64,000 nt of DNA, from contig CAXXDQ010000007.1 of assembly GCA_963664325.2 (NCBI GenBank), positions 608,001 to 672,000 on the forward strand, read 5' to 3'. The stretch is from Desulfomonilia bacterium (GTDB taxonomy: Bacteria > Desulfobacterota > Desulfomonilia > UBA1062). Made by a program: the position numbers and the translations under genes. The number at the start of each line of letters is the position of its first letter. The stretch's first letter is position 1. This document shows, piece after piece, positions 1,114 through 25,867 of this stretch. The notes under the pieces are model-generated. The model searched no databases. It had not been told where the DNA came from and saw nothing but the letters and a program-made list of their open reading frames with translations.

Positions 1114-1434
1114 ATGCCGACAATCGAACTAGCAGGAAAAACTTACGAAGTTGACGAAGACGGGTTCCTTCAGGAACTCGATAAATGGAGCGAGGAATTC
1201 GCACAGGCTTATGCGAGCGCAGAGGAAATCGAAGGAACACTGACCGAAGACCACTGGAAAGTGATCAACTACCTCAGAAATTATTATCATGAATTCGGAA
1301 TTGCGCCAATGATCCGGAAGATATGCAAGGATTTGAAAATCGATATGAAAAAGCTCTATGAGCTCTATCCCACCGGCCCAGCCAAGGGTGCATGCAAGCT
1401 TGCAGGCCTTTCAAAACCGACGGGTTGTGTATAA
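1114..1434 (+). CDS. dsrC: Sulfur relay protein DsrC
   Basis: VDEDGFL, HWKVINYLR, and C-terminal arm GACKLAGLSKPTGCV with both conserved cysteines (C-X10-C); aggag RBS. Confidence 0.95.
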   Translation: MPTIELAGKTYEVDEDGFLQELDKWSEEFAQAYASAEEIEGTLTEDHWKVINYLRNYYHEFGIAPMIRKICKDLKIDMKKLYELYPTGPAKGACKLAGLSKPTGCV

Positions 1435-3995: not shown

Positions 3996-4003
3996 GGAAT
4001 AGC

Positions 4004-4993: not shown

Positions 4994-4995
4994 AC

Positions 4996-6609
4996 GTGTC
5001 GTTCGCTAAAACACCCAAACCTGATGAACTGATAAGCATCAAATACGGCATGCCGAAGAAGCCATGGATGGACACGCCTGCGGACTTCAAGCCGGGTACA
5101 TGGAGCTATTCAGGCGCGGCAAAGAACCTTACGGCCCTCGATCTTCCCAATCCCAGGACATGGCAGCCTTCGGATGAAGACTGGAAGCTCCCTGAAAACT
5201 GGCAGTCAATCATACTTGAAGGAATGAAGGAACGGCTCGGAAAGTACAGGTCATTCAGACTGTTCATGGATATATGCGTTCGATGCGGGGCCTGCGCCGA
5301 CAAATGCCATTTCTTTATCGGCACCGGCGATCCGAAGAATATGCCGGTGCTGAGAGCAGAGCTTATCCGCTCTGTTTATCGCCGATATTTTACTGTTTCC
5401 GGAAGGGTCTTTGGCCGCTTAGCGGGTGCAAGAGACTTGACCGTCGACGTCTTGAAGGAGTGGTTCTATTATTTCTATCAATGCACGGAATGCCGACGCT
5501 GCGCCGTCTTCTGCCCTTTCGGCATAGACCAGGCCGAGATCACAATGATAGGCAGGGAACTTCTCAATCTGGTGGGCTGCAATATAAACTGGGTCGTAGA
5601 ACCCTCCGCAAACTGCTTCAGGACCGGAAACCATCTCGGCATACAGCCGGGCGGCATCAAGGACATGATTGAATTCTTGACAGATGATATCGCAGACCGG
5701 ACCGGTGTCCGGGTGGAAGTACCACTCAACAGAAAGGGTGCAGAAATCCTGTTCATAACTCCATCTGCAGACTATTTCGCCGACCCGGGCACATATACCT
5801 GCATGGGATATCTCATGCTCTTTCATGAGATAGGTCTTGACTACACGATGAGCACATACGCTTCCGAAGGAGGAAACTTCGGGCTCTTCACGTCGCATGA
5901 TATGATCAAGCGGCTCAATGCAAAGATATACGCTGAAGCAAAGCGCCTGGGCGTCAAATGGATACTTGGTGGCGAATGCGGCCACATGTGGAGGGTGGTC
6001 AACCAGTATATGGACACCATGAACGGACCGGCCGATTTTCTTGAAGTGCCTGTCTCACCCGCAACAGGGACGCGATTTGAAAACGCCCGATCCACAAAGA
6101 TGGTCCACATCTGCGAATTCACGGCAGACATAATCAAAAACGGCAAAATCAGACTCGACCCTTCGAGAAACGGCCATCTGAAGATTACATTCCACGACTC
6201 CTGCAATCCTTCGCGGGCCATGGGTCTCTTCGATGAGCCGCGCTATATCATCAATAATGCATGCAACAATTTTTTTGAAATGCGTGAGGATGCCATTAGG
6301 GAAAAAACATTCTGCTGCGGTGCAGGCGCCGGGCTAGGCAATGAAGAGAATATGGAGATGAGGATGCGCGGCGGCATGCCCAGGGCAATGGCCGTAAAGG
6401 AAGTACGCGAGAAATATGGCGTCAACCGCCTGGCCTGCATATGCGCCGTTGACCGGGCTACACTCCCTCCTCTGATGGAATACTGGGTTCCCGATGTCTC
6501 AGTCATGGGCGTTCACGAACTGCTGGGCAACGCCCTTGTCATGGAAGGCGAAAATGAACGGCTTACCGACCTCAGGGGAGATCCCATTAAGGAGACAGAG
6601 GCGTCATGA
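4996..6609 (+). CDS. dsrK: DsrK catalytic Fe-S subunit
   Basis: CVRCGACADKCH, DPKNMPVLRAEL, CTECRRCAVFCPFGID, SEGGNFG, GGECGHMWR, HDSCN, FCCGAG. Confidence 0.93.
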   Translation: MSFAKTPKPDELISIKYGMPKKPWMDTPADFKPGTWSYSGAAKNLTALDLPNPRTWQPSDEDWKLPENWQSIILEGMKERLGKYRSFRLFMDICVRCGACADKCHFFIGTGDPKNMPVLRAELIRSVYRRYFTVSGRVFGRLAGARDLTVDVLKEWFYYFYQCTECRRCAVFCPFGIDQAEITMIGRELLNLVGCNINWVVEPSANCFRTGNHLGIQPGGIKDMIEFLTDDIADRTGVRVEVPLNRKGAEILFITPSADYFADPGTYTCMGYLMLFHEIGLDYTMSTYASEGGNFGLFTSHDMIKRLNAKIYAEAKRLGVKWILGGECGHMWRVVNQYMDTMNGPADFLEVPVSPATGTRFENARSTKMVHICEFTADIIKNGKIRLDPSRNGHLKITFHDSCNPSRAMGLFDEPRYIINNACNNFFEMREDAIREKTFCCGAGAGLGNEENMEMRMRGGMPRAMAVKEVREKYGVNRLACICAVDRATLPPLMEYWVPDVSVMGVHELLGNALVMEGENERLTDLRGDPIKETEAS

Positions 6610-7049
6610 AGCCAAAGCCTGGAACAATTATAGGCGTTTCTATCGGCATAGCTGTATTCGTCCTCATTGCGGCCTTTCCCTTCTGGTATGGCGGCTTTAA
6701 ACCCAAGGCCGCCCCGGATATAGATCTCAATACACCTGAAATAAACTCACTTTCCGAAAAGCAGTGCGTGGCTTCCACAGCTTACATGAAGACAGAACAT
6801 ATGAGGCTCCTCAATCAGTGGCGCAACGATGTCGTGCGCAACAACGACCGGACTTATACAGCACCCGACGGACGGCGGTTCGACAAAAGCCTCACAAAGA
6901 CTTGTCTTGCATGCCACACCAACAAGGAGCGGTTCTGCAACCGCTGCCACAATTATGCCGGCGCCAATCCCAAATGCTGGGACTGCCATTCCGAAACGGC
7001 TTCCTCGGCTGCGAGAAAGGCGATAAAATTCAGGGAAAAGGTGAACTGA
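6606..7049 (+). CDS. dsrJ: DsrJ triheme cytochrome c
   Basis: N-terminal TM anchor, FPFWY, CV..MK.EHM, three CxxCH motifs (CLACH, CNRCH, CWDCH). Confidence 0.92.
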   Translation: MKPKPGTIIGVSIGIAVFVLIAAFPFWYGGFKPKAAPDIDLNTPEINSLSEKQCVASTAYMKTEHMRLLNQWRNDVVRNNDRTYTAPDGRRFDKSLTKTCLACHTNKERFCNRCHNYAGANPKCWDCHSETASSAARKAIKFREKVN

Positions 7050-7050
7050 C

Positions 7051-7818
7051 ATGGTGGACATTAAACGCAGACTGATATTGAAGGCCGCCGGGATATCCGC
7101 TCTCGGCACCATTATTCCGCCTGTCGGGTATCTGATCTCTGCGCATGCAAAGGAAGTCATGTCGAAACAGGCAGCACCGTCTGCAAAACGGTGGGCCATG
7201 CTGGTTGACATCTCGAAGTGTCCGGCAGGATGCAGAGGTTGCATCGATGCCTGTCACGGCATCCACAATGTGCCGTCAATAAACGAGCCCGGACAGGAAA
7301 TAAGATGGATACAGAAGGTGCCATTCTCAAACGCCTTCCCTTCGCAGGAAAACCCCTACTCGGACGTATCCATTAAGAAAAGGGAAACCGTGGTCATGTG
7401 CAACCACTGCAGTAATCCTCCCTGCGTACGTGTCTGCCCGACACAGGCCACGTTCAAGCGCAGTGACGGCATAGTCATGATGGACTATCACAGGTGCATA
7501 GGCTGCAGGTTCTGCATAGCGGCCTGCCCTTACGGCGCAAGGAGCATGAATTTCAGAAACCCCCGGCCGTATATCGGAAGCATAAACCCGGACTTCCCTA
7601 CAAGGACCAAAGGCGTGGTCGAAAAATGCAACTTCTGCGAGGAGCGCCTCGCCAGGAATCTCCTGCCCGCATGCGAGCAAGCATGCAAATACAAGGCCCT
7701 CATATTCGGAGACCTGCTGGCGGGAAAATCGGAAATCAAAACGATACTTGAGAACAGCAATGCGTTCAGGCGCAGACCCGAACTCGGAACAGAACCTCAC
7801 GTATTCTACATAGGATGA
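7051..7818 (+). CDS. dsrO: DsrO periplasmic Fe-S protein
   Basis: Tat-like KRRLILK signal; CNHCSNPPCVRVCP, CIGCRFCIAACP, VEKCNFC. Confidence 0.92.
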   Translation: MVDIKRRLILKAAGISALGTIIPPVGYLISAHAKEVMSKQAAPSAKRWAMLVDISKCPAGCRGCIDACHGIHNVPSINEPGQEIRWIQKVPFSNAFPSQENPYSDVSIKKRETVVMCNHCSNPPCVRVCPTQATFKRSDGIVMMDYHRCIGCRFCIAACPYGARSMNFRNPRPYIGSINPDFPTRTKGVVEKCNFCEERLARNLLPACEQACKYKALIFGDLLAGKSEIKTILENSNAFRRRPELGTEPHVFYIG

Positions 7819-7831
7819 AAAGCGAGCTACA

Positions 7832-9019
7832 ATGACTGATCCCACAGATAAAAACAGGATCACAGGCCGTATCTGGCTGGTTTTTCTGATTGCTGTCATG
7901 GCGGTCGGAGGGTTCTTCTATCTGCGCCAGTTGAACATGGGCTTAAGCATTACCGGCATGAACCAGAACGTGACCTGGGGCCTCTATATCTCCCAGTTCA
8001 CATTTCTCGTAGGCATCGCAGCTTCAGCAGTAATGCTCATACTTCCCTATTATCTCCATGATCACAAAGTATTCGGCCGGATTACGCTGTTAGGAGAATT
8101 CCTCGCCGTCTCCGCTGTCATGATGTCCGTCACTTTTGTTATAGTCGATCTCGGACGTCCTGACCGCGCATTCAACATGATCCTTCACCCATCCCCCAAG
8201 TCTATTCTTTTCTGGGATATGATCGTGCTGTCAGGCTATCTGATAATCAACCTCATCATCGGATGGACGGTTCTGGAGTGCGAGCGAAAGGGAACGCCTC
8301 CCCCGTCATGGGTCAAACCGCTAATATACCTGTCAATTCCCTGGGCCATAAGCATACATACCGTAACAGCCTTCATATACGCGGGCCTGCCTGCAAGGAC
8401 CTTCTGGCTTACGGCTGTCATGGCGCCCCGCTTCCTGGCGTCGGCGTTCGCATCAGGCCCTGCCCTTCTCGTACTCCTGTGCCTGATTCTTCGCCGATAT
8501 ACCTCATTTGATGCAGGCAGAGAACCCCTTCAGACACTGGCGAAGATTATCGCCTATGCCCTTGCGACAAGCATCTTTTTCGTCCTTGTGGAAATCTTCA
8601 CGGCCTTCTACAGCGGCATTCCATCCTATAAGGAGCATTACCAGTATCTGTTCAGAGGTATTGACGGCCATATGACCCTTGTCCCCTGGATGTGGGCATC
8701 GGTCGTCCTGGCATTCACAGCACTTATCTTTCTTGTCATTCCCGCAACCAGACGGAATGAAAAGTGGCTTATGTCAGCCTGTATCGCAGTATTCATATCG
8801 CTGTGGATTGAAAAGGGCCTGGGTCTTGTTATTCCAGGATTCATTCCATCACCGCTTGGAGATGTTGGAACATACGTCCCCACAATGCCGGAAATTGCAA
8901 TCACTCTCGGAGTCTGGGCCGGAGGCCTCTTTGTTCTGACCCTCTTGTACAGGCTGTTTGTTGCAGTCAAGGCGCAGCATGTCAAGGCTGCTCTGTGGTT
9001 AAATTATTGGGGAGAATGA
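7832..9019 (+). CDS. dsrP: DsrP (NrfD/PsrC family) membrane subunit
   Basis: TGM...WGLYISQFTFLVG, DLGRPDR, SIPWAISIHTVTAF, APRFLASAFASGP. Confidence 0.92.
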   Translation: MTDPTDKNRITGRIWLVFLIAVMAVGGFFYLRQLNMGLSITGMNQNVTWGLYISQFTFLVGIAASAVMLILPYYLHDHKVFGRITLLGEFLAVSAVMMSVTFVIVDLGRPDRAFNMILHPSPKSILFWDMIVLSGYLIINLIIGWTVLECERKGTPPPSWVKPLIYLSIPWAISIHTVTAFIYAGLPARTFWLTAVMAPRFLASAFASGPALLVLLCLILRRYTSFDAGREPLQTLAKIIAYALATSIFFVLVEIFTAFYSGIPSYKEHYQYLFRGIDGHMTLVPWMWASVVLAFTALIFLVIPATRRNEKWLMSACIAVFISLWIEKGLGLVIPGFIPSPLGDVGTYVPTMPEIAITLGVWAGGLFVLTLLYRLFVAVKAQHVKAALWLNYWGE

Positions 9020-9022
9020 AAC

Positions 9023-10249
9023 ATGAAAATACTGACCCTGAACTGCGGCAGCTCATCAATCAAATTCAAGATTTTTTCAATGCCTAAAGGCTCTGCTCTT
9101 ATAAAAGGGCAGGCTGACCGTATAGGACTGGATGATGCAAAAATACAATGGGAAGGCGAAGAGATCAAACATTGCAGCATCAGTTATAAACTTCACAGCC
9201 ACAAAGAGGCGCTCGAAATATTGCTCGGACTCAGGACGGCGGGAGGCGAAAAATCCCCTGTAAACACCGGTGACATAGCGGCTGTTGGGCATCGCGTTGT
9301 ACACGGTGGGGAGTTTTTCCACTCGTCAGTCGCCATCACCCCTGCCATACGCAGAACTCTGGAAGGCTGCAGAAATCTCGCCCCGCTGCATAATCCACAC
9401 AACCTCACAGGAATTGACGTCTGCGCAGCACTTATCCCGGATGTACCGCAGGTAGCGGTTTTTGATACGGCCTTTCACCAGAGCCTTCCTGATTTCGCAT
9501 ATACCTATGCCGTACCATACAGATTTTACGAGGAAAACCGAATCAGGAAATACGGATTTCATGGAACTTCGCATAGATATGTCGCAGAACGCGCAGCACA
9601 GATCCTGGGCAGGGACATTAAACAGCTTAGAATCATCACCGCGCACCTCGGCAACGGATCAAGCCTTTGTGCAGTTGGAAACGGGAAATCATGCGACACA
9701 TCGATGGGTTTCACACCGCTTTCAGGCGTTGTCATGGGAACCAGATGCGGTGACATTGATCCCGCATTCGTAGCCTATCTTATTAAAAATATGAACTTAC
9801 CCCTTGAAGAAGCAATGCGCATACTCAATTATGAAAGCGGAGTACTGGGGATTTCGGGCCTTTCATCGGATTTCAGGGACCTTTTTTCAGCTGCGGAAAC
9901 GGGCCATCAACGGGCGGCTCTTGCACTTAACGTCTTCGCATACAGTGTGGCAAGAGGGATCGGGTCTTTAATCCCTTCCATTAACGGCCTTGATGTTCTC
10001 GTGTTCACCGCTGGCATCGGCGAAAATTCTTATCAGATGCGCCAACTGATCTGCGGTTATCTGTCATGGCTGGGTATCTGTCTGGACCCGGCCAAGAACA
10101 TACAGGGAACGCCGGAACGAGATGTTTCCAGTCCTGAAACACAGGTACGGGTCCTCGTCATACCCACGGACGAGGAAAAAATAATTGCACAGGAAACCAT
10201 GAGCATCCTCACAAATGGAGGACAGCCAACATGTCAGGATGGATTTTGA
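9023..10249 (+). CDS. ackA: Acetate kinase
   Basis: LNCGSSSIK, GHRVVHGG, APLHNP, FDTAFH, YGFHGTSH, HLGNG, TSMGFTPL, FTAGIGEN, IPTDEE. Confidence 0.95.
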   Translation: MKILTLNCGSSSIKFKIFSMPKGSALIKGQADRIGLDDAKIQWEGEEIKHCSISYKLHSHKEALEILLGLRTAGGEKSPVNTGDIAAVGHRVVHGGEFFHSSVAITPAIRRTLEGCRNLAPLHNPHNLTGIDVCAALIPDVPQVAVFDTAFHQSLPDFAYTYAVPYRFYEENRIRKYGFHGTSHRYVAERAAQILGRDIKQLRIITAHLGNGSSLCAVGNGKSCDTSMGFTPLSGVVMGTRCGDIDPAFVAYLIKNMNLPLEEAMRILNYESGVLGISGLSSDFRDLFSAAETGHQRAALALNVFAYSVARGIGSLIPSINGLDVLVFTAGIGENSYQMRQLICGYLSWLGICLDPAKNIQGTPERDVSSPETQVRVLVIPTDEEKIIAQETMSILTNGGQPTCQDGF

Positions 10250-10310
10250 TGGCTTTGCTCAATCTCGCCAAGTGAAAAAAAAATAAAAATCAAGAATAGG
10301 AGGAATTAGG

Positions 10311-12050
10311 ATGAAAAAAGTTAAGATGACACCCAGCGAAGCAATTGTCGAAACACTGCTGGCCGAAGGTGTGGATCATGTATGCGGCATTGTGGGATCA
10401 GCCTTTATGGACATGCTGGACCTTTTCCCTGCAGCTGGAATAAAATTCTATCCTGTACGCCATGAACAGAGCGCAGCACACATGGAAGACGCATATTCCC
10501 GTATCACCGGGCGTGCCGGCGTCGTTACCGGCCAGAATGGGCCAGGCATCACCAATATGGTTACATCGGTAGCTGCAGCGAATATGGGACATACACCCCT
10601 TGTAGTCATCTCTCCGTCAGCAGGAACGCCTACAATCGGCTGGGACGGATTCCAGGAATGCGACCAGCTATCAGTATTCAAGGCCATTACCAAGGCTACA
10701 GTCCGCGTACCTCATCCCAAAAGGGCCGCCGACTGTCTGAGGACGGCGTTCAGGATTGCATATGCCGAAAGAGGCCCGGTGCTTTATGACATCCCAAGGG
10801 ATTATTTCTACGGAGAACTTGAAGAGACCATTTTGAAGCCGTCACAGTACAGAGTGGATGCCCGCGGATGCGGCTCAATCGAAAGCTTGGACAAGGCTGC
10901 CCAGCTTCTTTCAAAGGCGAAGAATCCGGTCATCGTTTCAGGCCGCGGCGTGGTCGACTCCAACGGACTTGATGTAATCAAAGCGATCGCCGAGCATCTT
11001 ACTGCACCAGTTGCCGTCACCTATCTTCACAACGACGCATTCTACGGCAATCATCCGATGTTCCTTGGTTCGATAGGATATATGGGATCAAAGGCGGCCA
11101 TGAAGACGCTCTCCAAGGCCGACGTAGTGCTTGCAGTCGGAACGCGCCTTTCGGTTTTCGGGACCCTGCCCCAGTATGACATCAATTATTTCCCGGATGC
11201 GGCAAAAATAATCCAGATCGACATCAACCCGCGCCACATAGCACGCACCCATCCGATTGAAGTGGGCATAATAGGCGATGCTAAGGAGGCGAGCTCTGAA
11301 ATTCTCAAACGGCTGAAAGCTTTGAACAAGGGACGCAAACCTGACGTCAAAAGGCTTGCCGCAATCGCCAAGGAAAAAGACATATGGGAAAAGGAAATCG
11401 TCAAGCTGGCCATGGTGAAGGGAAACCCCATCAACCCGAGAAGGGTTCTGCTCGAGATATCAAAGGCGCTGCCCAAAGACTGTATAGTGACGACCGACAT
11501 CGGCAACGTTTCATCAACGGCCAACAGCTATCTTAAATTCAACGGCGGACGCCAGCATATTGCGGCTCTTACCTTCGGTAACACCGGGTTCGCTTACCCG
11601 GCTGCTCTTGGCGCACAGATCGCAAAACCGAAATCGCCGGTCATCGCCATCATCGGAGATGGTGCCTGGGGCATGAGCCTTCACGAGGTAAGCACTGCCG
11701 TGGAACACAACCTGCCTGTCGTCGCATGCGTGTTCAGGAACACGTGGTGGGGGGCTGAGGCGAAAAACCAGATCGATTTTTATAACAACCGTTTCATAGG
11801 GGTTGACATCCCCAATCCGGAGAGCTTCGCGCCTGTTGCACAGGCAATGGGAGCCCAGGGAGTGCGCGTTGAGCGCGCCGAAGACATTAAGGATGCATTC
11901 CTCTCATGCATCAAGAGCCGCAAGCCTACAGTCCTCGAGTTCGTTGTCGACGGCATGCAGCTCGCCCCTCCGTTCAGAAAGGACGCACTGGCCCTGCCGA
12001 CAAGGTTCCTCAAAAAGTACGACTATCTCGATTACAGAAACTGGGATTGA
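10311..12050 (+). CDS. xsc: Sulfoacetaldehyde acetyltransferase (ThDP-dependent)
   Basis: Xsc-type signatures [88 protein letters not shown]; recalled as closely matching anaerobe-type Xsc. Confidence 0.9.
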
Positions 12051-12088
12051 TGATTCCAGCAGATATCTTAAACGGCCGGTTATAAGAT

Positions 12089-12123
12089 AAAAAGCCGCTT
12101 CCTGATACAGGAAGCGGCTTTTT
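12089..12123. terminator. Bidirectional intrinsic terminator
   Basis: Perfect inverted repeat aaaagccgcttcctg-ata-caggaagcggctttt between convergent xsc and GDPD genes. Confidence 0.85.
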
Positions 12124-12143
12124 CATATAGCAATGAAATTCTG

Positions 12144-14039
12144 TTATTCTTCCGTTACGCCTTTTAATATGCCTGGCTCGTCCGTCATTATGGCCTCGAC
12201 CTTCTTGTCATTGATGAGAGAGCGCATTGTTGCAGCGTCGTTTATTGTCCATGCATGGACCTTGAGCCCCAGATATCTGGCCTTTAGCATGAAAGGATCG
12301 TTTATGACGGTCACGTTGAGACCGCCGAGCGCAAACTCCAGCGGGACCTGCAGGACCTTTGCAGGCGGCTCGTATTTGCTGGCAAGCATCACGGAAAGCG
12401 GGGTCAGGAAGAAGCTGATGATCTCGGCCTGGCTGAATGATGTGATTACGTCAAGGCCTTTCAGCTCTATCTCATTTCTAACATCTGCAAGGGCAGCTGA
12501 ATCGAACGATTCGATGATGACATGATCCTTGATTCCGTGTGCATCTATCATATCGAGCAGCTTGTCCGACAGCCCCTCGTCGAGCTGCTTTATCTCGATT
12601 ACGCCAGGCGAATTCATAAGCGCAGGTTCATTGAGCACCTCTTCGAGGGTCGGTATCTGTATCCCATGTCCGCGGTAAGGGTATGACGCGCCACCGTCGG
12701 TTGTGAACCGGTAACCCGCATCCAGCTCCTTGACCTCGGCAAGCGTCATGTCATTAATGCTTCCCGTTCCGTCAGTACACCTGTCCACAGTCGTATCGTG
12801 TGAAACGACTATGTATCCGTCTTTGGTAAGCTGAAGGTCGAGTTCGTAACCGTCAGCGCCTTCGGCTATGCCGTTACGGAATGCCTCAAGCGTGTTTTCA
12901 GGCCTCAGGTCCGACCCGCCCCTGTGTGCGATGTTGAGGAACCCTGTGTCATTGCGCAGATATGTGTTGGTGACCGTGTCGCCTGAAGCTATGTCAGCCA
13001 TAACCTGCGACCAGTCCCAGGCAATGCTGTCGGGAGTGATGAAGTCGAATCCCTGTGTGTCAAGATCTTTCATCGGATTCAGGAAATAATTGACCTTGAA
13101 CGGGATGTAGAAAATCCTGTTCGCAATGGCGCCGTAGCCGTCTTCATGCGGTGTATCGCCCACCATAGCCAGGACCTTGCCGTCACCGTAAAGTTTCTTT
13201 ATTGTGCCTAGAGCGGCAGCCTTATATTCGTTGGTTTCAGCATAAGGAAGATCACTTTTTACAATGATGGGAATTGTCCTCAGGGTGCCCGCCTCGAAGT
13301 GATTTATCATCTGCTGCCTGCACAGCGCCCTGGTTTCGAGCGGCATGCCCGTGACAATAATGAAGTCTTTGCCTTCATCGCGAAGCTTTTTTACAGAAGG
13401 TACGACATACTCGTCAACAAGCGGCCAGTCGCCCTTGGTGAAGTTGAGGAAGTTTATGACATCGGTGATGCTGTTAAGCCCGCCGGTCGCGTGCAGGGTG
13501 TTATCATGATCCGAGACGACAATCTGCGGATTGGGCCTCGGGATACTGTCGAGATTCAATTCCACGCATAAAGAATTCTGGCTTCCCAGAACCCTGACAA
13601 GCCCCATGGTGTCAGAAACCGTTTTCCCGCCGGAGAACAGCACGTCAGCCCTGAGCTGGAGGTCAAGAGGCGCAGAGCAGAGAGCAAACCCCGTCAGCCA
13701 TTTTCTCAGGCCGTCAAGGGAGGCCTTTCCTTTGCTGTCTGTTATGACCGGCGCATCACCCAGTTGTATCCAGGCATCATCACCCGAACCGACAGGCCGG
13801 GCATAAAACTGAACCTGCATGCCGCTCAGTTTCTTGCCAAGGATAAACTTGAAGAAGGACTGCTTGTCCTTTTGTTCGATCTGATAGACCGTGGCATTGG
13901 GTGCGATTTCCGGTTCAGTGCTGTCACCGTTGCTGGTGATGCCGTCCGATACTACAATCTCTGTATTCTCAGGCGTCGGCAGACATCCCGAAATAATAAT
14001 GATGATTGTTAGAGACAGATAGATAAACAGTTTCTTCAT
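12144..14039 (-). CDS. Lipoprotein with HAD-like phosphatase domain fused to a glycerophosphodiester phosphodiesterase (GDPD) domain
   Basis: Lipobox IIISGC; HAD motifs SDHDNTL, IVTG, MVGD; C-terminal GDPD motifs IAHRG, PENTLEAF, ELDLQLTKDG, SHD, IPTLEE, AWTIN, MTD. Confidence 0.8.
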   Translation of the reverse strand: MKKLFIYLSLTIIIIISGCLPTPENTEIVVSDGITSNGDSTEPEIAPNATVYQIEQKDKQSFFKFILGKKLSGMQVQFYARPVGSGDDAWIQLGDAPVITDSKGKASLDGLRKWLTGFALCSAPLDLQLRADVLFSGGKTVSDTMGLVRVLGSQNSLCVELNLDSIPRPNPQIVVSDHDNTLHATGGLNSITDVINFLNFTKGDWPLVDEYVVPSVKKLRDEGKDFIIVTGMPLETRALCRQQMINHFEAGTLRTIPIIVKSDLPYAETNEYKAAALGTIKKLYGDGKVLAMVGDTPHEDGYGAIANRIFYIPFKVNYFLNPMKDLDTQGFDFITPDSIAWDWSQVMADIASGDTVTNTYLRNDTGFLNIAHRGGSDLRPENTLEAFRNGIAEGADGYELDLQLTKDGYIVVSHDTTVDRCTDGTGSINDMTLAEVKELDAGYRFTTDGGASYPYRGHGIQIPTLEEVLNEPALMNSPGVIEIKQLDEGLSDKLLDMIDAHGIKDHVIIESFDSAALADVRNEIELKGLDVITSFSQAEIISFFLTPLSVMLASKYEPPAKVLQVPLEFALGGLNVTVINDPFMLKARYLGLKVHAWTINDAATMRSLINDKKVEAIMTDEPGILKGVTEE

Positions 14040-14074
14040 AAACCCTCCTCAAATATAAAGTTTTACAGAAATGC

Positions 14075-14090
14075 TGCAAATTAAATACCA
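14075..14090 (-). promoter_or_regulatory. Putative sigma-54 (-24/-12) promoter of the HAD-GDPD gene
   Basis: Minus strand TGGTATTTAATTTGCA = GG-N10-GC, about 35 nt upstream of the ATG at 14039, in an AT-rich intergenic region. Confidence 0.6.
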
Positions 14091-14260
14091 TATATCTTGG
14101 CTTTTTTACAGCAATTTTTCATATATGAATTAATATCATGTTAAGAAGGTTTTATAAAAATCCATCGGGTTAATCATCGATCTTTAAAAATCTCAGAAAT
14201 GGCGAGATTTCAACCATGCTCAGAATATGGCCAAGCCCGGCCAATTCTCTGGATTATGTT

Positions 14261-15619
14261 TTATTCAACTTCGGCGTCTGCAACGAGCAGCGCCTTGTCA
14301 AATACCTCCACTGCAAAGTCGATTTCGTCCTTTGTAATGGTAAGGGGCGGCGCGAACATGATCACGCTTGCCACACCGGGCAGGCAGTAGACGCCGTTTT
14401 TCATCGCCTCGGCAAGCACCTTCATCTTGGCAGTAAGAGGTCTCGGCCCTTCGAACAGCATTTCATGCATCGGTTCTTTGGTTCTCCTGTTCTTGACAAG
14501 TTCAAGTCCGACAAAAAGCCCTTTGCCGCGGACGTCGCCGACACACGGATGTTTATCCATAAGTTCAAGCGCCTTTTCCATCAGGTATTCGCCCATTTTT
14601 GCGGCACGCTCTATCAGTCTGTCCTCCTTATAAGCCTCAATGGTTGCAACACCCGCTGCCATGGCAAGGGCATGGCCGCTGTACGTATGTCCGTGTACAT
14701 ATGGAACTTCTTCAAAAATTTTTGAATATTTTTCACTTACGCTTGTCGCACCCAGCGGTACATAACCTGATGTTATGCCTTTTGCCATGGTTATGACATC
14801 GGGAACCACATTCCAGTGCTCAATTGCAAACCATCTGCCGGTACGGCCGAAACCGACCATTACTTCATCCACCATCATTAGCATTTCATATTTGTCGCAG
14901 ATTTCACGTATCTTCTGCCAGTACCCGTCGGGCGGTACGATTATCCCGTTTGCCCCGACCACCGGTTCCGCGATAAAAGCTGCAATCCTTTTGGCGCCGC
15001 CCTCGAACCTGATGACATCCTCGACATGTTTTGCGCACTGCAGGTCGCAACCCGGATAGGTGATTCCAAAAGGACAGCGGTAACAGTAAGGGTCAAGACA
15101 GTGGACAACCCCGGGAATGGCAGGTTCGGTCGACCAGTTCCTGAAATCGTTTGTCAGCGCCATGGCCCCGTAAGTGGAACCGTGATAGCTCCTGAACCGG
15201 GCAATTATCTTCTGCTTGCCTGTTGCAAACCTGGCAACCTTTATGGCACCTTCATTCGCCTCGGCCCCGCTTGTTGAAAAAAAGGTCTTTTTAATGTCGC
15301 CGGGCGTCACCTCCGCAATCAGCCTTGCAAGTCTGGCCTTCGGCTCTGTGGCAAAAGAAGACGAGCACGCGGGCAGCCTTTCCGCCTGAGCCGAAATGGC
15401 CTTTACCACTCGGGGATCGGCATGTCCCAGATTGCTGAATACGAACATGGAGCTGAAATCCAGGTATTTTTTATCCGACGAATCCCAGAAATAATTACCG
15501 GATGCCCTGTCCACAATAACCGGGGTTACAGCCTTCTGGGCGACCCATGGATAAAGGACGTTCTCTTTTTCATATTTTCTTATGGCATCCGCATCAAGTC
15601 TTTCTTTAAATTCTGCCAT
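14261..15619 (-). CDS. Class III PLP aminotransferase, resembling the taurine:2-oxoglutarate transaminase (Toa) subfamily
   Basis: YPWVAQ, YLDFSS, SGAEANE, RSYHG, DEVMVGFGRTG, PDVITMAKG (PLP Lys), HTYSGH; the W.AQ / YLDFSS / RSYHG / TYSGH pattern is recalled from Toa-like enzymes. Confidence 0.7.
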   Translation of the reverse strand: MAEFKERLDADAIRKYEKENVLYPWVAQKAVTPVIVDRASGNYFWDSSDKKYLDFSSMFVFSNLGHADPRVVKAISAQAERLPACSSSFATEPKARLARLIAEVTPGDIKKTFFSTSGAEANEGAIKVARFATGKQKIIARFRSYHGSTYGAMALTNDFRNWSTEPAIPGVVHCLDPYCYRCPFGITYPGCDLQCAKHVEDVIRFEGGAKRIAAFIAEPVVGANGIIVPPDGYWQKIREICDKYEMLMMVDEVMVGFGRTGRWFAIEHWNVVPDVITMAKGITSGYVPLGATSVSEKYSKIFEEVPYVHGHTYSGHALAMAAGVATIEAYKEDRLIERAAKMGEYLMEKALELMDKHPCVGDVRGKGLFVGLELVKNRRTKEPMHEMLFEGPRPLTAKMKVLAEAMKNGVYCLPGVASVIMFAPPLTITKDEIDFAVEVFDKALLVADAEVE

Positions 15620-15625
15620 GAAATT

Positions 15626-17053
15626 CTAACTCCTTTTGATTCTTCTAATTATTTTAAGTACGACCGGTGTAGCCTTATCGATCAATGTCTGCTTTGAAGG
15701 ATCACTTTCAAGAGACGGCATCTTGCACTCAGGCCCATAGAGACCGAGCATCATTTTCATGACCTCGTTTTTGATAAGCTTCCTGAAAGGGATATTCGCT
15801 ATCATTCCATACATGGCCGCATTGCCCTTTACCGCCAGTTCGGGATGCGCCCTTACATGCTTCACTGCATCCGCAAGATCCTTCAGATAGACATCCGTTA
15901 TAGTTGAATGCCTCGGCGTAACCATGCAGTGAAGCGCGTTGGGATTCTGCAGCCTGTCGATAAGCCAGCCCTTTTCCTCCAGCATATCGCCCACGGCAAA
16001 TATATCCAAGTCCCTGTCAGTCGAGGTATAAGCAAAGACGCTCATCGCAGGCTTCCCGAGGACCTTGAGCCCGGGGATTGCCTCAACGCCTTTTTTAAGC
16101 TTAACAGTCGTTTCCATAATTGTTGCTGCTATAGCCTTATAGCCGTCAATTCCAAGCGCATTCATAGCCGCCCAGGCAGCTGCAATCGCTCCGCCGGGAC
16201 GCGTGCCGAGCATTGCAGGTGATGCAAACACCCCGCCCGGCCAGTCCGCGAATATGAAAAACTGGTGTTTCATATAGTTCATATCTTTATAAAGCAGTAC
16301 CGATGAGCCTTTTGCGCTGAAACCATACTTGTGGGAATCAGCCGATATCGAGGTTACACCCGGGACCCTGAAATCAAAAGGGTCGACATGCAGACCATTC
16401 ATTTCGATGAACGGAAGGAGGAACCCTCCCAGACAGGAGTCCACATGAAGAGGTATGTCATGTCTGAGAGCAATCTCTCCGAGTTCGTATATGGGATCAA
16501 TCACGCCATGGGGATATGAAGGCGCAGAACTCACGATCATGATTGTATTTCTGTTAATAAGCCTTTCCACCGCTTTTGCATCAACCCTCAGGTCTTTCCC
16601 CAGCGGGGCATGCACCATCTTGATACCGAAATATTTCGCAGCCTTTTCCCATGCGACGTGTATTGACACAGGCGCAATCATCTCAGGCCTGAACGGCAGG
16701 TAACGTTTTGATTTTGCATATTCACGGTATGTAACTACCGGGAGCAGGCAGCTCTCGGTGCCGCCCGAAGTCATGGTGCCGACAACCTTTTCATCACCGT
16801 TCAGAAGATTGGCCGCCATCTTGACAACCTCGGTTTCCATGCGCTTGAGGCTTTTGAATGCAATCGGATTGAGGGCGTTTTCGCTGAAATACATGCCATA
16901 GGCCTGCTTGAGAAAATCCGTATGTTCGTCACTCAGGTAGTAAACCAGGCTCCAGGTTTTGTTTTCGCGGAAGTTTGCATCTTCACCACTGAATCCCTTG
17001 AGCATTTCAAGAACCTTAGGCCTCTCGATGCCATGCTGCGGAATCCTGTCCAT
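15626..17053 (-). CDS. Sphingosine-1-phosphate lyase-like PLP enzyme (group II decarboxylase fold)
   Basis: WSLVY, MTSGGTES, HVAWEKAA, SAPSYPHGVIDP, LHVDSCLGGF, FDFRVPGVTSISADSHKYG, WPGG, GTRPGG. Confidence 0.85.
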   Translation of the reverse strand: MDRIPQHGIERPKVLEMLKGFSGEDANFRENKTWSLVYYLSDEHTDFLKQAYGMYFSENALNPIAFKSLKRMETEVVKMAANLLNGDEKVVGTMTSGGTESCLLPVVTYREYAKSKRYLPFRPEMIAPVSIHVAWEKAAKYFGIKMVHAPLGKDLRVDAKAVERLINRNTIMIVSSAPSYPHGVIDPIYELGEIALRHDIPLHVDSCLGGFLLPFIEMNGLHVDPFDFRVPGVTSISADSHKYGFSAKGSSVLLYKDMNYMKHQFFIFADWPGGVFASPAMLGTRPGGAIAAAWAAMNALGIDGYKAIAATIMETTVKLKKGVEAIPGLKVLGKPAMSVFAYTSTDRDLDIFAVGDMLEEKGWLIDRLQNPNALHCMVTPRHSTITDVYLKDLADAVKHVRAHPELAVKGNAAMYGMIANIPFRKLIKNEVMKMMLGLYGPECKMPSLESDPSKQTLIDKATPVVLKIIRRIKRS

Positions 17054-17178
17054 ATCATCCCCCTAATGCCTAACCGGCCGATTTTATATGGTTTCAAAAA
17101 GGTGTTTTTGTTTAATCATACGGCTCAGCCTTTGTCCATAGTTTAATCTCGATATAATCCCGCAATTTGTGTTTATAA

Positions 17179-17192
17179 TTGATTCAAGTCAA
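17179..17192 (+). promoter_or_regulatory. Crp/Fnr-family (FNR/HcpR/Dnr-type) binding site
   Basis: TTGAT-TCAA-GTCAA, one mismatch to TTGAT-N4-ATCAA; TATATT -10-like hexamer at 17215-17220 gives class II activator spacing. Confidence 0.55.
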
Positions 17193-17248
17193 ATATTTTT
17201 TCCGGTTGATGCACTATATTTTTTATAAACAATAAAAGGAGGCTCGGC

Positions 17249-17989
17249 ATGAAACACACAAGAAAGATTATCACTATCGACGAGGAAAAGTGTAACGGCT
17301 GCGGCCAGTGCTGCCTGGCATGCGCAGAAGGCGCTCTCAGGCTTGTCGACGGCAAAGCGAAACTCGTGGGTGATATATTTTGCGACGGACTTGGCGCATG
17401 CATCGGCGAATGTCCGGAAGGGGCATTAAAGATTATCAACAGGCCCGCTGATGACTTTGATGAAAAATCCGTCAGGCAGATGCAGAATATAAAAGCCGAA
17501 GATAAAAAACCCGAGGCTTTAGCCTGTGGGTGTCCATCGTCGGCCATGATGGAACTGAAGAAGACCCCGTGCCGTGAAGACATTGAGCCTGCAGGGGCAG
17601 CGGCCAGCCGGCTCGGGCACTGGCCGGTAAAACTCCAGCTCCTGGGCCCGCAGGCGCCGTTCTTGAAAAATAGCGACCTGGTGCTGCTGGCCGACTGCGT
17701 TGCAGTTGCATATCCATACCTGCACGGAAAGATACTGAAAGACCGCACCATTGCGATAGGCTGCCCCAAACTTGACAATATAGAAGCACACGTTGACAGA
17801 CTTGCACAGATTCTTAAAGGGGCCCGCCCGAAAAGCCTGACAGTAGTTCATATGGAAGTCCCGTGCTGCAGCGGGTTCCTCCATGCAGCAATCGAGGCCA
17901 TTGAGCGTTCCGGCGTGAAGATTCCCCTTAGGAAGATTATTATCAGCCGAAGTGGTGAAATACTGGCAGATGAAGAGCTCGCTCTTTAA
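17249..17989 (+). CDS. 4Fe-4S dicluster domain protein
   Basis: CNGCGQCCLAC, CDGLGACIGECP, CGCP, WPVKL, ADC, GCPKLD, MEVPCC. Confidence 0.85.
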   Translation: MKHTRKIITIDEEKCNGCGQCCLACAEGALRLVDGKAKLVGDIFCDGLGACIGECPEGALKIINRPADDFDEKSVRQMQNIKAEDKKPEALACGCPSSAMMELKKTPCREDIEPAGAAASRLGHWPVKLQLLGPQAPFLKNSDLVLLADCVAVAYPYLHGKILKDRTIAIGCPKLDNIEAHVDRLAQILKGARPKSLTVVHMEVPCCSGFLHAAIEAIERSGVKIPLRKIIISRSGEILADEELAL

Positions 17990-19248: not shown

Positions 19249-19653
19249 ATGCCTTACGTTGATTTCAATGATTTTCCTGCAGGCAAGGTCGGCAAACCTT
19301 TTGAACGGGAACTCAAGGTGATTTTATCCCCTGACATCAACCCGGAAGTAAGAGGCTTCACTTTTCTTGTTTCCACCCTTGCACCAAACGGCGGATGCAC
19401 GGATATTCACATGCATGATGATTCAGGAGAACTCATGATATTCATGTCCGGCAGGGGCAAGGCATGGCTCAAGGGCGTCGAATACGAGATCAAACCGGGC
19501 GTCGCCATTTATGCACCACCCTGCGTTCCCCATAAAACCATGAATACGGGCGACGAACCCCTGATGATCGCCTGTGTTTTCGTTCCCCCCATATCAACCG
19601 AATACATAAGGCAGAATATTGAAGCCGCACAAAAATCGGACGCCTGCAAATGA
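19249..19653 (+). CDS. Cupin-domain protein
   Basis: HMHDDSGE...G.G...PPCVPH...NTG; ATG at 19249 after aggaggt RBS. Confidence 0.85.
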   Translation: MPYVDFNDFPAGKVGKPFERELKVILSPDINPEVRGFTFLVSTLAPNGGCTDIHMHDDSGELMIFMSGRGKAWLKGVEYEIKPGVAIYAPPCVPHKTMNTGDEPLMIACVFVPPISTEYIRQNIEAAQKSDACK

Positions 19654-21767
19654 AAGATGTACTTTTAAAGCGCATATCAGAATTAAGACAATCAGTCGCA
19701 AAAGTGATTTCCGAGGATGAACTGAAACAAATCCTAAGGGTTTACGGTGCGCCTGTGCCAATGGGCAAACTGTGCAAAACCCCTGAAGAAGCTGTCAGGT
19801 TCTCTTCAGAAATCAATCCTCCGGTTGTCCTCAAACTCTCATCTGAGAATACCCTTCATAAAACCGAACTGCATGGTGTCAGGCTCAATCTTGTTTCAAA
19901 AGAAGAAATTTACAAGGCCTTCATCGAAATGGACTCCTCCTTCAAGAAACAGAATGTTGAAGGCTACCGGGGAATACTTGTTGAAGAACAGGCTCCTCAG
20001 GGAACGGAAATCATAGTCGGCCTCCAGCATGACGCCGCATTCGGACCCACGGTCATGATAGGCCTTGGGGGCATATTCACCGACCTTTTGAAAGACGTGG
20101 TCTTCAGGATGATCCCACTGTCAAAAAAGGAAATCCTTCAAACCCTTGGGACATTAAAAGCATGGCCGTTATTGAGCGGCTATCGAGGTAAATCTGCACT
20201 TGATATTGATGGAATAGTGGATGCAATTTTCGCAATTACATCCTTCGGCACCGATTTTGCCGGCCAGTATGAATCGATTGACTTCAACCCTCTCATAGCT
20301 ACGCCTGAAGGATGCAAGGTAGTCGATGCAAAAATGGTGATCGCCCAGAAGGTGATGCGAGCCCAAACTTCTTCATCAGAGGAGCCGCGTATCGAGCATA
20401 TGACCGGTTTTTTTAATCCGAAGAGTGTTGCCGTGATAGGCGCGTCCAACACCCCGGGCAAAATCGGCTTTACGATCCTGGATTCGCTTATCAACCTGGA
20501 TTTCAAGGGAATTGTCTATCCTGTCAACCCTAAGGCAGCCGAAGTTCTCGGCCTGAAAGCCTACCCTTCCCTTTCAGCCCTCCCTGAAATACCTGAGATG
20601 GTCGTCATAAGCGTAGGACTTGAACTTGTCCCTGACATTATTGTCGAAATGGGGAAAAAGGGAGTGCATAATGCTTTCATCGTCTCCGGCGGCGGCAAGG
20701 AACTGGGCGGCGAACGTGCCGGGATTGAAACCAGGATAAGCGTTCTTGCCCGCGAAAACGACGTCAGGATAGTGGGACCGAACTGCATAGGCAGTTTTGA
20801 CGGAAACAACAAGTTCGATTCATTCTTTTACCCGAGAGGCAGACTTAAACGTCCCGGCGGCGGACCGGTGAGCTTTATTACTCAAAGCGGCACGTGGGGC
20901 TGTGCGTTCTTAGAAAATGCGGCCGACATTGGCGTCAGCAAGATGGTGAGCTACGGCAACCGCGTCGATGTGGATGAGGGCGATCTGATTGCATACCTTG
21001 CGAGTGATCCATTAACAAAGGTGATCGGCAGCTATCTCGAAGGCCTGGGTGACGGCAGGAAATTCCTTGAAGGAGTAAAAACCGCAAGATCAGCAGGGAA
21101 ACCGGTTGTTGTATTCAAGACCGGCCGCAATCAAATATCAGCCCACGCAGCCGTCTCACATACGGGCGCCTATGGAGGCAGCTATGAGATATACAAGGGT
21201 GCGCTTGAGCAGGGGGGTGTAATTCTTACGGAGAATTTCCACGAGCTTTATGCGGCTTGTGTAACGCTTGCTCTGCAACCGGCCGCAAAAGGAAACAGGG
21301 CTGCTTTGGTTTCAAACGGCGCAGGCCCGATGGTAAATGCAATTGATCTTTTTCCATCCAAAGGGCTTGAACTGGTTACACTTAGCAGGGAATCATTTAT
21401 CCTAATGCGTGATAAATTCAGCTTCTTCTATATAGTCGAGAACCCTGTAGATGTAACGGGTTCAGCCACAGGCGCTGATTATGAGTTTGTTATCGAGACC
21501 CTTATTGCAGATGAGAATGTCGATATAATTATGCCTTTCTTTGTATTTCAGAATGCGCCGCTGGACGAAAGCATCGTTGAACGTCTCGCCGAAATAAATG
21601 CCAGGAAACTCAAGCCTATTGTATGCTGTTCCACAGGGGGCACATACTCCGATAAAATGAGCTCGGCCATTATGAAGGTTGGCATCCCGGTATTTACCCG
21701 TGTAGGCGAATGGGTTGCCGCTGCTTCGGGACTTGCACAGTGGGCAGGATTAAATAAAAAGACATGA
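19650..21767 (+). CDS. ADP-forming acyl-CoA ligase (ACD family), fused beta(ATP-grasp)-alpha order
   Basis: HKTELHGV, EEQA, FGPTVMIGLGG, DFNPL then VAVIGAS, YPVNP, GPNCIG, TQSG, SYGN, SHTGA (phospho-His), NPVDVTG. Confidence 0.88.
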   Translation: MKDVLLKRISELRQSVAKVISEDELKQILRVYGAPVPMGKLCKTPEEAVRFSSEINPPVVLKLSSENTLHKTELHGVRLNLVSKEEIYKAFIEMDSSFKKQNVEGYRGILVEEQAPQGTEIIVGLQHDAAFGPTVMIGLGGIFTDLLKDVVFRMIPLSKKEILQTLGTLKAWPLLSGYRGKSALDIDGIVDAIFAITSFGTDFAGQYESIDFNPLIATPEGCKVVDAKMVIAQKVMRAQTSSSEEPRIEHMTGFFNPKSVAVIGASNTPGKIGFTILDSLINLDFKGIVYPVNPKAAEVLGLKAYPSLSALPEIPEMVVISVGLELVPDIIVEMGKKGVHNAFIVSGGGKELGGERAGIETRISVLARENDVRIVGPNCIGSFDGNNKFDSFFYPRGRLKRPGGGPVSFITQSGTWGCAFLENAADIGVSKMVSYGNRVDVDEGDLIAYLASDPLTKVIGSYLEGLGDGRKFLEGVKTARSAGKPVVVFKTGRNQISAHAAVSHTGAYGGSYEIYKGALEQGGVILTENFHELYAACVTLALQPAAKGNRAALVSNGAGPMVNAIDLFPSKGLELVTLSRESFILMRDKFSFFYIVENPVDVTGSATGADYEFVIETLIADENVDIIMPFFVFQNAPLDESIVERLAEINARKLKPIVCCSTGGTYSDKMSSAIMKVGIPVFTRVGEWVAAASGLAQWAGLNKKT

Positions 21768-21876
21768 TAAAGCAATCAGCCTCCCCCATCATCCTCCTGT
21801 TAAGGATGAGATAATCTCTTTCAGCAAAAGAGGGGTGGGGTACAGGGAAAATAGTTTTCTAGCAAAGGAGAGGAAT

Positions 21877-24359: not shown

Positions 24360-24373
24360 GGGAGGGGAATGTC

Positions 24374-25861: not shown

Positions 25862-25867
25862 CAGGAG

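Follow-up and report, generated by a model that had tools for sequence, protein, structure and literature searches.

What supplies substrate to the sulfoacetaldehyde acetyltransferase (Xsc) that a Desulfomonilia bacterium encodes at the end of its dsr operon? The locus lies in a stretch of 64,000 nucleotides, hereafter the window, from contig CAXXDQ010000007.1 of assembly GCA_963664325.2 (genome G000; 4.3 Mb, 95.6% complete; C7:608001-672000 in our contig numbering). At 9023-17053 the window holds ackA and xsc and, facing them on the minus strand, a gene for a protein related to sphingosine-1-phosphate (S1P) lyases (SPL; protein P0001) followed by one for a class III aminotransferase (protein P0002); the coordinates of all open reading frames (ORFs) in this part were confirmed. 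It has been proposed in a first-pass annotation, made from the DNA letters alone, that P0001 cleaves capnine, the base of Bacteroidota sulfonolipids, to taurine and that P0002, Xsc, AckA and the Dsr proteins use the product. S1P and capnine differ only at C1, and cleavage of capnine between C2 and C3 gives taurine; the proposed chemistry is sound. Judging from protein families, pocket residues and gene neighbourhoods, we consider taurine-forming cleavage of capnine by P0001 to be the best single reading of the locus, with a probability of roughly 0.38.

When P0001 was compared with proteins of solved structure, the highest scores were obtained with S1P lyases: 389 bits for the enzyme of Symbiobacterium thermophilum (StSPL), 383 for human SPL, 336 for the Burkholderia enzyme, 312 for the yeast enzyme and 223 for that of Legionella. 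The decarboxylases MfnA and GAD gave 118 and 95 bits, respectively. The alignment between P0001 and SPL spans residues 3-423/430. The decarboxylase equivalog models are not passed either (MfnA TIGR03812, 250.6 against a cut-off of 299.4; GAD TIGR01788, 134.9 against 380.4), and a plain decarboxylase by family score was rejected on these two cut-offs. By these scores P0001 is a genuine member of the SPL family, and the first-pass assignment of 15626-17053 to that family rather than to plain decarboxylases stands. No second lyase copy was found by tblastn in the 4.3-Mb genome. A quick tree gave a support of 100 to the canonical SPL clade and of 99 to the P0001 clade, and left the order of the clades and the root unresolved since the outgroup branches are very long.

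The head-group pocket of P0001 was read from HMMER alignments, using residue lists for StSPL as given in the accessible part of a review (PMC10243590). According to that text, StSPL binds pyridoxal 5'-phosphate (PLP) through K311, H310, D274, H201, G168 and T169, a phosphate that mimics the S1P head through Y105, N126, H129 and S353, and a phosphoethanolamine adduct through A103, Y105, H129 and K317. The PLP-binding residues are all kept in P0001 (Lys242, His241, Asp205, the His of S-I-H and the GGT motif), and the PLP Lys and His are invariant in 121/121 members of a clade sample, which comprises the proteins of at least 60% identity from a large protein search. The phosphate head-group ligands are only partly kept: the counterparts of Tyr105, Asn126 and Lys317 are retained, while H129 is replaced by Asn62 and S353 by Thr284; in addition S125 is replaced by Glu58 and A103 by Leu36. 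The pocket reads L36, Y38, E58-N59-A-L-N62-P63 and T284 in P0001 as against A/T, Y, S-N-P-L-H-P and S in StSPL and human SPL. L36, Y38, E58, N59 and T284 are found in all 121 clade members, and the position of the phosphate-binding His is occupied by Asn (N62) in 118 of them and by Ser in the other 3, giving the motif E-N-[AG]-L-N. StSPL, human SPL and six canonical homologues from the same phylum keep S/T-N-P-L-H. We conclude from the alignments that the head-group pocket of the P0001 clade differs from that of S1P lyases at the phosphate-binding His. Since the altered pocket is conserved across the clade, P0001 belongs to a conserved, distinct subfamily and is not a decayed SPL.

Two further features of P0001 are hints of a lipid substrate. 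The engineered surrogate 5EUD departs from StSPL at three positions, and at these the clade is hydrophobic (Y180 in 121/121, V/I275 and A/I277), residue 276 between the last two is F/Y, and the loop DWPGG-x-[FY]-A-S-P is conserved between P0001 and SPLs. These positions presumably form the entrance of the substrate tunnel, an assignment that draws in part on the accessible text of PMC10243590. The C-terminal tail of P0001 is basic and amphipathic and has the highest hydrophobic moment among the 14-residue segments of the protein. Such a tail is common and not universal in the clade: it lies above the 95th percentile in 61% of the members and carries a net charge of at least +3 in 62%.

P0002 has a class III fold (Aminotran_3, 333.9 bits). 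Its best solved relative is Toa (6JIX, 330 bits; the next structure scores 278), which bears out the Toa-like aminotransferase that the first-pass annotation had placed at 14261-15619. P0002 also passes NF004718 (504.9 against a cut-off of 472), a model that carries no function name, and close homologues are called taurine--2-oxoglutarate transaminase in the automatic annotation at JGI, which is a label and not a test. In the genome, tblastn found no other aminotransferase or Xsc match above 34% identity. We propose on this basis that P0002 may be a taurine:2-oxoacid transaminase yielding sulfoacetaldehyde.

The features of the locus and of the dsr operon that it faces are as follows.

20-1090, plus strand: dsrN-like CobB/CobQ-type amidase (Pfam GATase_3)
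1114-1434, plus strand: dsrC (Pfam DsrC)
1456-6609, plus strand: two dsrM/dsrK pairs (Pfam Nitrate_red_gam, Fer4/CCG)
6606-7049, plus strand: small ORF at the dsrJ position, without a Pfam match
7051-7818, plus strand: dsrO (Pfam Fer4_11)
7832-9019, plus strand: dsrP (Pfam NrfD)
9023-10249, plus strand: AckA, acetate kinase (TIGR00016, 456.5 against a cut-off of 293.4; Pfam Acetate_kinase, 459 bits)
10311-12050, plus strand: Xsc, sulfoacetaldehyde acetyltransferase (TIGR03457, 833.2 against a cut-off of 676.4)
12144-14039, minus strand: GDPD-domain lipoprotein of 631 aa (Pfam GDPD, 140.9 bits, residues 372-623)
14261-15619, minus strand: P0002, Toa-like class III aminotransferase of 452 aa (best match in the Protein Data Bank (PDB), Toa 6JIX)
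15626-17053, minus strand: P0001, variant SPL-family PLP lyase of 475 aa (best PDB matches, S1P lyases)

The ackA gene begins 3 bp 3' of dsrP and is followed on the same strand by xsc, whose product passes a second Xsc model as well (NF005713, 839.1 against a cut-off of 620). The dsrA gene lies outside the window, 1.7 kb upstream (C7:605154-606317; 567 bits against 392.85). On the minus strand the lyase gene precedes the aminotransferase gene with a spacer of 6 bp (15620-15625), as had been described, and 221 bp separate the latter from the GDPD gene; the lyase is the first gene of its unit because the ferredoxin-like gene upstream points the other way. This unit faces dsrN-C-MK-MK-JOP-ackA-xsc, and xsc lies 3.6 kb away. 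The earlier description of the unit as converging on ackA-xsc at the end of the dsr operon is correct as to convergence; the two are not direct neighbours, and the GDPD lipoprotein gene between them had been missed. A promoter and terminator scan of 11900-17400 returned fewer sites than shuffled sequence and is therefore uninformative. The second dsrM ORF (3896-4993) as called overlaps the first dsrK by about 100 nt; because of this overlap its true start is probably later.

The gene content of the host gives weight to the question of what feeds Xsc. G000 holds dsrAB and dsrC/MKJOP, and in this genome no aprA was found above the cut-off (81.6 against 641.75) and sat gave no match; Dsr therefore probably runs on sulfite from sulfonates. 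This gene profile indicates an organism that respires sulfite or organosulfonates and does not reduce sulfate; it looks like a specialist of this kind outside the Bilophila lineage, with sulfonate-derived sulfite probably its main electron acceptor. Since the only xsc of the genome is welded to the dsr operon, the source that feeds it would be central to the life of the organism. TauA (TIGR01729) has no match anywhere in the genome, which extends the earlier remark that no taurine transporter is encoded nearby, as far as this type is concerned. Nine glycyl-radical-domain matches are also present in G000.

In the mechanism that we favor, the minus-strand two-gene unit would supply sulfoacetaldehyde to the facing dsr-ackA-xsc operon. 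P0001 would keep PLP-dependent retro-aldol chemistry and cut the C2-C3 bond of a 2-amino-3-hydroxy-1-sulfonate; the head-group pocket has been rebuilt (His to Asn, Ser to Glu and Ala to Leu), and the 1-sulfonate analogue of a sphingoid base phosphate would therefore be accepted. The likeliest substrate would be capnine, released from Bacteroidota sulfonolipids by an amidase, and its cleavage would yield taurine together with a branched-chain C15 fatty aldehyde. Judging by its family and context, the Toa-like aminotransferase would then convert taurine to sulfoacetaldehyde. Xsc, placed in its family by equivalog models and with chemistry known for that family, would form acetyl phosphate and sulfite from sulfoacetaldehyde and phosphate; AckA would make acetate and ATP from acetyl phosphate and ADP, and DsrAB, DsrC and DsrMKJOP would reduce the sulfite. 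Uptake may go via a Spinster-like carrier of the major facilitator superfamily (MFS), encoded on contig C4 of the same genome in an operon with a short-chain dehydrogenase/reductase (SDR) and a thiamine pyrophosphate (TPP) enzyme.

We next consider the neighbours of close relatives of P0001, in 51 loci whose lyase is complete and 58-100% identical (loci and genomes carry L and G numbers). These loci, the window counted in, come from species-representative genomes, metagenomes and two genomes of the window's own family; three with cut genes (L017, L019 and L051) were left out of the table. The locus counts overstate independence because there are many near-copies (L022/L050; L024/26/28; L034-37). 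Some neighbours are labelled only by BLAST against labelled ORFs or by PDB searches, and several in L085-L098 carry no label. A class III (omega-)aminotransferase lies downstream of the lyase in 6/51 loci and belongs to one of two families. The Toa-like family is represented in the window, in G345 (51% identity to P0002) and in L030, where the protein is 75% identical to P0002 and passes NF004718 (494.8 against 472) and where a GntR/UTRA regulator gene stands between it and the lyase. A PRK07678-like aminotransferase follows the lyase in L047 (24 bp) and in L022/L050; the latter two loci have, on a single strand, DUF819, lyase, GntR, aminotransferase, alanine dehydrogenase, MFS and Amidohydro_3. 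The same lyase-aminotransferase junction is seen in the cut locus L019. The pairing pointed out in the first-pass annotation recurs in other lineages, and since omega-aminotransferases of two families follow the lyase, the lyase product would be an omega-amine. This link between lyase and omega-aminotransferase is well supported. An AMP-binding, acyl-CoA-synthetase-like gene follows the lyase in 8 loci, all from a Marinimicrobia-like synteny group. In L024, L026 and L028 an IS200-like transposase gene lies just past a truncated GntR/UTRA gene 3' of the lyase, and the regulator was apparently cut.

A wider view is given by a sample of 401 genomes of the phylum, among which an SPL-family gene was found in 44, xsc in 38 and a PRK06062-type aminotransferase in 30. 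We fetched 39 regions around the hits and sorted the lyases by pocket motif; the subtype counts leave out L088, L089, L093, L095 and L096, in which no lyase ORF passed the 50% coverage filter, and 13 of the 44 SPL-positive genomes fall outside the subtyping. The types are:

Canonical type: [ST]-N-P-L-H; 6 genomes; none of the partner genes
N/S type: E-N-[AG]-L-[NS]-P; 16 genomes including that of the window; SPL loop DWPGG-x-[FY]-A-[ST]-P kept
D type: x-N-[AG]-L-D, with Asp at the His129 position; 7 genomes; a different loop, W-x-G-Y-T
Fourth type: 3 genomes fetched, from one family

The six canonical SPLs group together apart from the others, and their gene neighbours differ. SPL-family genes and xsc co-occur in 13 genomes as against about 4 expected by chance, and by type xsc is present in 5/7 D-type, 3/3 fourth-type, 2/6 canonical and 1/16 N/S-type genomes. 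The PRK06062-type aminotransferase is found in 8/16 N/S-type genomes vs 22/385 others; a single family accounts for six of the eight, and adjacency to an N/S lyase is confined to the family of the window. Two of the 30 genomes with this aminotransferase have xsc. In G117 a relative of P0002 with 50% identity adjoins xsc (70 bp), and in G236 the order is SDR, TetR, xsc, D-type lyase (7 bp after xsc), carrier and TauE. Judged from gene order, the link from N/S lyase to Xsc would rest on the window and on the Toa-xsc pair of G117, to which the D-type operon of G236 adds by analogy. A linkage to sulfonate genes, which the first-pass annotation named as a check on its pathway, gains from the last two cases; for xsc, among close relatives and N/S-type genomes, it is borne out by the window only.

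The transporters and enzymes beside the variant lyases were also compared. A GltS-like carrier and a TauE gene accompany the D-type lyase in L058 (G236), L083 (G040), L084 (G366) and L090 (G043). In three N/S-type loci (L069, L070 and L071) the lyase gene overlaps, at its stop codon, the gene for a TauE-family permease, and in L061 such a gene lies 46 bp after the lyase; the gene order in L071 is MFS, Amidohydro_3, SDR, lyase, TauE, Amidohydro_2 and MFS. Amidohydro_3 also adjoins the variant lyase in L022/L050 and follows it in L067. In family f39 two loci (L062 and L064) have MFS, TPP enzyme, Zn-dependent alcohol dehydrogenase (Zn-ADH), lyase, SDR and acyl-CoA dehydrogenase, and L063, L065, L066 and L068 have part of this set. 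The best solved relatives of the MFS proteins are Spinster transporters (SPNS1, 2.4e-24; the bacterial homologue 6E8J; the S1P transporter SPNS2), with the next family at 5e-13, and such a carrier stands beside a variant lyase in 8 loci (L003, L022, L050, L062, L063, L064, L071 and L076). Among proteins of solved structure the TPP enzyme is nearest to benzaldehyde lyase (BAL)/formolase and to 2-hydroxyacyl-CoA lyase (HACL)/synthase. A pair of SDR and BAL/HACL-like TPP enzyme occurs with variant lyases in several families (L062-L066, L058, L059, L081), often accompanied by a Spinster-like MFS and a TetR regulator, and could carry out an undescribed aldehyde- or acyloin-processing step. In G000 the SDR/TPP/MFS trio is the operon on contig C4 (L081, C4:97001-117000), unlinked to the lyase; it is 55-62% identical to the f39 genes, its MFS protein matches 6E8J at 1.5e-37, and in other genomes the same trio is joined to the lyase locus.

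How do these observations bear on capnine as the substrate? A long-chain base carrying a sulfonate is favored by the level of homology to SPL, by the loss of the phosphate ligand, by partner enzymes that consume an amine, by the tunnel positions and by the amphipathic tail. Spinster-like carriers, amidohydrolases, acyl-CoA dehydrogenase, Zn-ADH, SDR and the BAL/HACL-like TPP enzyme are hints of a lipid substrate, and the lyase-TauE pairs make sense only if the non-sulfonate half of the substrate is worth keeping. A number of findings weigh on the other side. The commonest partner is a DUF819 membrane protein gene, directly upstream of the lyase (1-102 bp) in 30/51 loci and not found in G000; DUF819 is assigned to the CPA/AT superfamily, whose members carry small charged solutes, in the accessible part of PMC8396727. 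Two GltS-like carrier genes lie near the lyase in G345. Carriers of both kinds favor a small solute, and the transporter-plus-enzyme pair looks, by analogy, like a decarboxylase/antiporter system. P0001 begins at about residue 68 of StSPL, none of the 121 clade members has more than 20 extra N-terminal residues, and the Nt-FLEX arm (about 57 residues in StSPL), which is thought to work at or reach into membranes according to the accessible text of PMC3148216, is missing. The bulkier Leu in place of Ala103 could narrow the leaving-group site. As to the gene links, xsc lies within the flank of 1/51 close loci and in one of the 16 N/S-type genomes, in both cases that of the window, which speaks against any sulfonate substrate; the PRK06062-type aminotransferase and xsc occur together in 2/401 genomes, about as expected by chance; and the units in the window are convergent, with the GDPD gene between them, and do not form a single operon. 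No amidase or Spinster-like gene was found in the window. Since the TauE family is present in 13/14 control genomes, its presence is weak evidence, and what deserves notice is the gene pairs that overlap. The capnine pathway of the first-pass annotation keeps in its favor the SPL family, the altered pocket, the recurring aminotransferase and the Spinster-like MFS and amidohydrolase neighbours; the xsc link confined to the window, DUF819 as commonest partner and the missing arm count against it. The E-N-[AG]-L-[NS]-P branch numbers thousands of proteins, from anaerobic members of the Thermodesulfobacteriota, Marinimicrobia and Firmicutes; that it is as a whole a family of sulfono-sphingoid base (capnine) lyases is a tentative suggestion, which we consider rather less likely than not.

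Taurine might also be formed from a smaller precursor, and nothing tells capnine, cysteate and cysteinolate apart as its source. P0001 could be a decarboxylase that converts L-cysteate (or 3-sulfinoalanine) to taurine (or hypotaurine) and CO2, with Toa, Xsc, AckA and Dsr following as in the capnine pathway and with the DUF819 or GltS-like carriers acting as importers or precursor/product antiporters. The sulfonate-pocket logic would be the same, the arm is missing, the GltS-like carriers stand near the lyase of G345 and beside the four D-type relatives named above, and the two-gene transporter-plus-enzyme unit of the 30 loci resembles decarboxylase/antiporter pairs, of which GadBC is a known example. 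Sulfite respirers are known to use cysteate (PMC11193023, accessible part). We nevertheless regard this as unlikely, with P0001 below the MfnA and GAD cut-offs and scoring three times as many bits against proven retro-aldolases as against any decarboxylase. We know of no decarboxylase within the SPL clade, and the Spinster-like MFS, the amidohydrolases, the acyl-CoA dehydrogenase, the ADH, the tunnel positions and the amphipathic tail would stay unexplained. Cysteinolic acid (2-amino-3-hydroxypropane-1-sulfonate), an abundant algal solute in its cysteinolate form, would need the chemistry and pocket proposed for capnine: imported by a small-solute carrier, it would be cleaved to taurine and formaldehyde, and the BAL/HACL/formolase-like TPP enzyme and dehydrogenases of related loci would clear the aldehyde. 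DUF819 and GltS-like partners suit a small zwitterion, the nearest solved relatives of the TPP partner include formolase, and many of the relatives are marine. Pairs of lyase and TauE genes that adjoin no taurine pathway, however, would leave such cells only formaldehyde, and the hydrophobic tunnel positions are conserved; with Spinster-like MFS, amidohydrolases and acyl-CoA dehydrogenase again unaccounted for, we find cysteinolate quite improbable.

The other alternatives do without a sulfonate. P0001 might act on a different 2-amino-3-hydroxy compound, such as a sphingoid base that has either no phosphate or some other head group, or form another omega-amine, which the aminotransferase would handle; the nearness of xsc in the window would then be chance. 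In keeping with this, xsc was found in 0/15 other sampled genomes with an N/S-type lyase, the units in the window are convergent with an unrelated gene between them, the transaminase name on homologues of P0002 comes from automatic annotation, the identity of P0002 to Toa is moderate (330 bits), and the changes of His to Asn and Ser to Glu would be compatible, too, with a head group that is neutral or cationic. Such a substrate seems rather unlikely to us, though less so than cysteate, when the lyase and Toa-like genes are each single-copy in the 4.3-Mb genome and 3.6 kb from its only xsc, when xsc adjoins a Toa-like gene in G117 and an SPL-like gene in G236, when TauE genes overlap or closely follow the lyase in the four N/S-type loci, and when the host appears dependent on sulfonate-derived sulfite. 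The competing pathway named in the first-pass annotation, in which the lyase makes phosphoethanolamine from S1P and P0002 acts as a class III phospho-lyase of the ETNPPL or PbfA kind, could appeal to the overall SPL homology and to a class III fold that also houses such lyases, with P0002 scoring 307.8 bits against the PbfA model NF049939. With a cut-off of 525 the PbfA model is missed by a wide margin, P0002 does pass the Toa-related NF004718, and an ETNPPL/PbfA identity of P0002 was rejected on the missed cut-off. The phosphate-binding His is lost throughout the clade, the six canonical SPLs stand apart in clade and neighbours, and no long-chain-base kinase was noticed beside variant lyases, where no systematic search for one was made; this pathway is very improbable.

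The GDPD lipoprotein encoded between the two units has a signal/lipobox-like N-terminus in its translation and a C-terminal GDPD phosphodiesterase domain. Its N-terminal half of 360 residues holds a DxDxT-like motif, and residues 1-360 gave no PDB match. A full-length paralogue of 39% identity is encoded on contig C3 (C3:969868-971664). No GDPD gene was found beside the lyase in the loci of relatives; the lipoprotein was for this reason rejected as a part of the pathway, and its membership in the lyase-aminotransferase unit is doubtful. Elsewhere in G000 (L082, C8:4691-8927), genes for an MFS protein, an Amidohydro_3 protein (37% identity to the amidohydrolase of L022) and a class III aminotransferase stand in a row and are possibly an N-acyl-amine catabolic unit. 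The plus strand of the window at 21835-26338 encodes an RpiB-like isomerase, a TPP enzyme divided between the ORFs 22703-23542 and 23733-24359, a fusion of a GFO/IDH/MocA oxidoreductase with an SCP2 domain, and an MGS-like protein; the gene at 19650-21767, upstream of this cluster, codes for an acyl-CoA synthetase of the ADP-forming type.

Gliding and gut Bacteroidota have sulfonolipids among their major membrane lipids, and the biosynthesis of these compounds has recently been worked out, as described in the accessible parts of PMC9304779 and PMC11211663. For a capnine- or sulfonolipid-degrading enzyme the literature searched, in which most subscription journals are not covered, yielded only biosynthetic and lipidomic work, in agreement with the earlier remark that no described capnine lyase was known. 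If P0001 is a capnine lyase, it would fill this gap in sulfonolipid breakdown, connect the turnover of lipids with sulfite respiration and with the formation of hydrogen sulfide, and show how the phosphate-binding pocket of a medically important enzyme family has been retuned for a sulfonate. Should the whole E-N-[AG]-L-[NS]-P branch have this function, Bacteroidota sulfonolipids would be an unrecognised and widespread source of taurine; organisms with lyase, Toa, Xsc, AckA and Dsr would use them directly to fuel sulfide production in sediments and guts, and other holders of the lyase would keep the fatty aldehyde and export the sulfonate via TauE-type permeases. Were the substrate cysteate or cysteinolate, anaerobic sulfonate degradation would even so gain a taurine-forming step that has not been described, and a very large clade of uncharacterised proteins would be given a function.

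Among known systems, SPL itself (StSPL, 3MAD; human SGPL1, 4Q6R/8AYF) shares with P0001 the fold, the family and the PLP residues as well as Tyr105, Asn126, Lys317 and the tunnel-entrance loop. Unlike SPL, the P0001 clade has Asn, Glu, Leu and Thr for His129, Ser125, Ala103 and Ser353, has a basic amphipathic C-terminal tail instead of an N-terminal membrane helix or Nt-FLEX arm, and has transporters, omega-aminotransferases and sulfonate genes rather than sphingolipid genes as genomic partners. The 30 loci with a secondary transporter beside this enzyme of the PLP_deC superfamily are reminiscent of GadB/GadC pairs, but the enzyme is of the SPL clade and below the decarboxylase cut-offs, and the transporter is DUF819, not an APC antiporter. 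Eukaryotic sphingoid-base catabolism uses a 2-hydroxyacyl-CoA lyase in the phytosphingosine route, and the related loci likewise join a lyase, a TPP enzyme of the BAL/HACL group, dehydrogenases and an acyl-CoA dehydrogenase; they differ in being bacterial and anaerobic with no kinase step, and in the host of the window the TPP, SDR and MFS genes are on another contig. Anaerobic taurine degradation proceeds via an aminotransferase, Xsc and acetate kinase or Pta in taurine fermenters and sulfite respirers. With a Toa-like enzyme (Toa being known from Bifidobacterium kashiwanohense, 6JIX), Xsc, AckA and a Dsr sulfite sink, the window resembles this scheme in content; it differs in that the host has no match to a taurine ABC binding protein, the aminotransferase is translationally coupled to a lyase by which taurine would be formed within the cell, and xsc and ackA are appended directly to dsrMKJOP.

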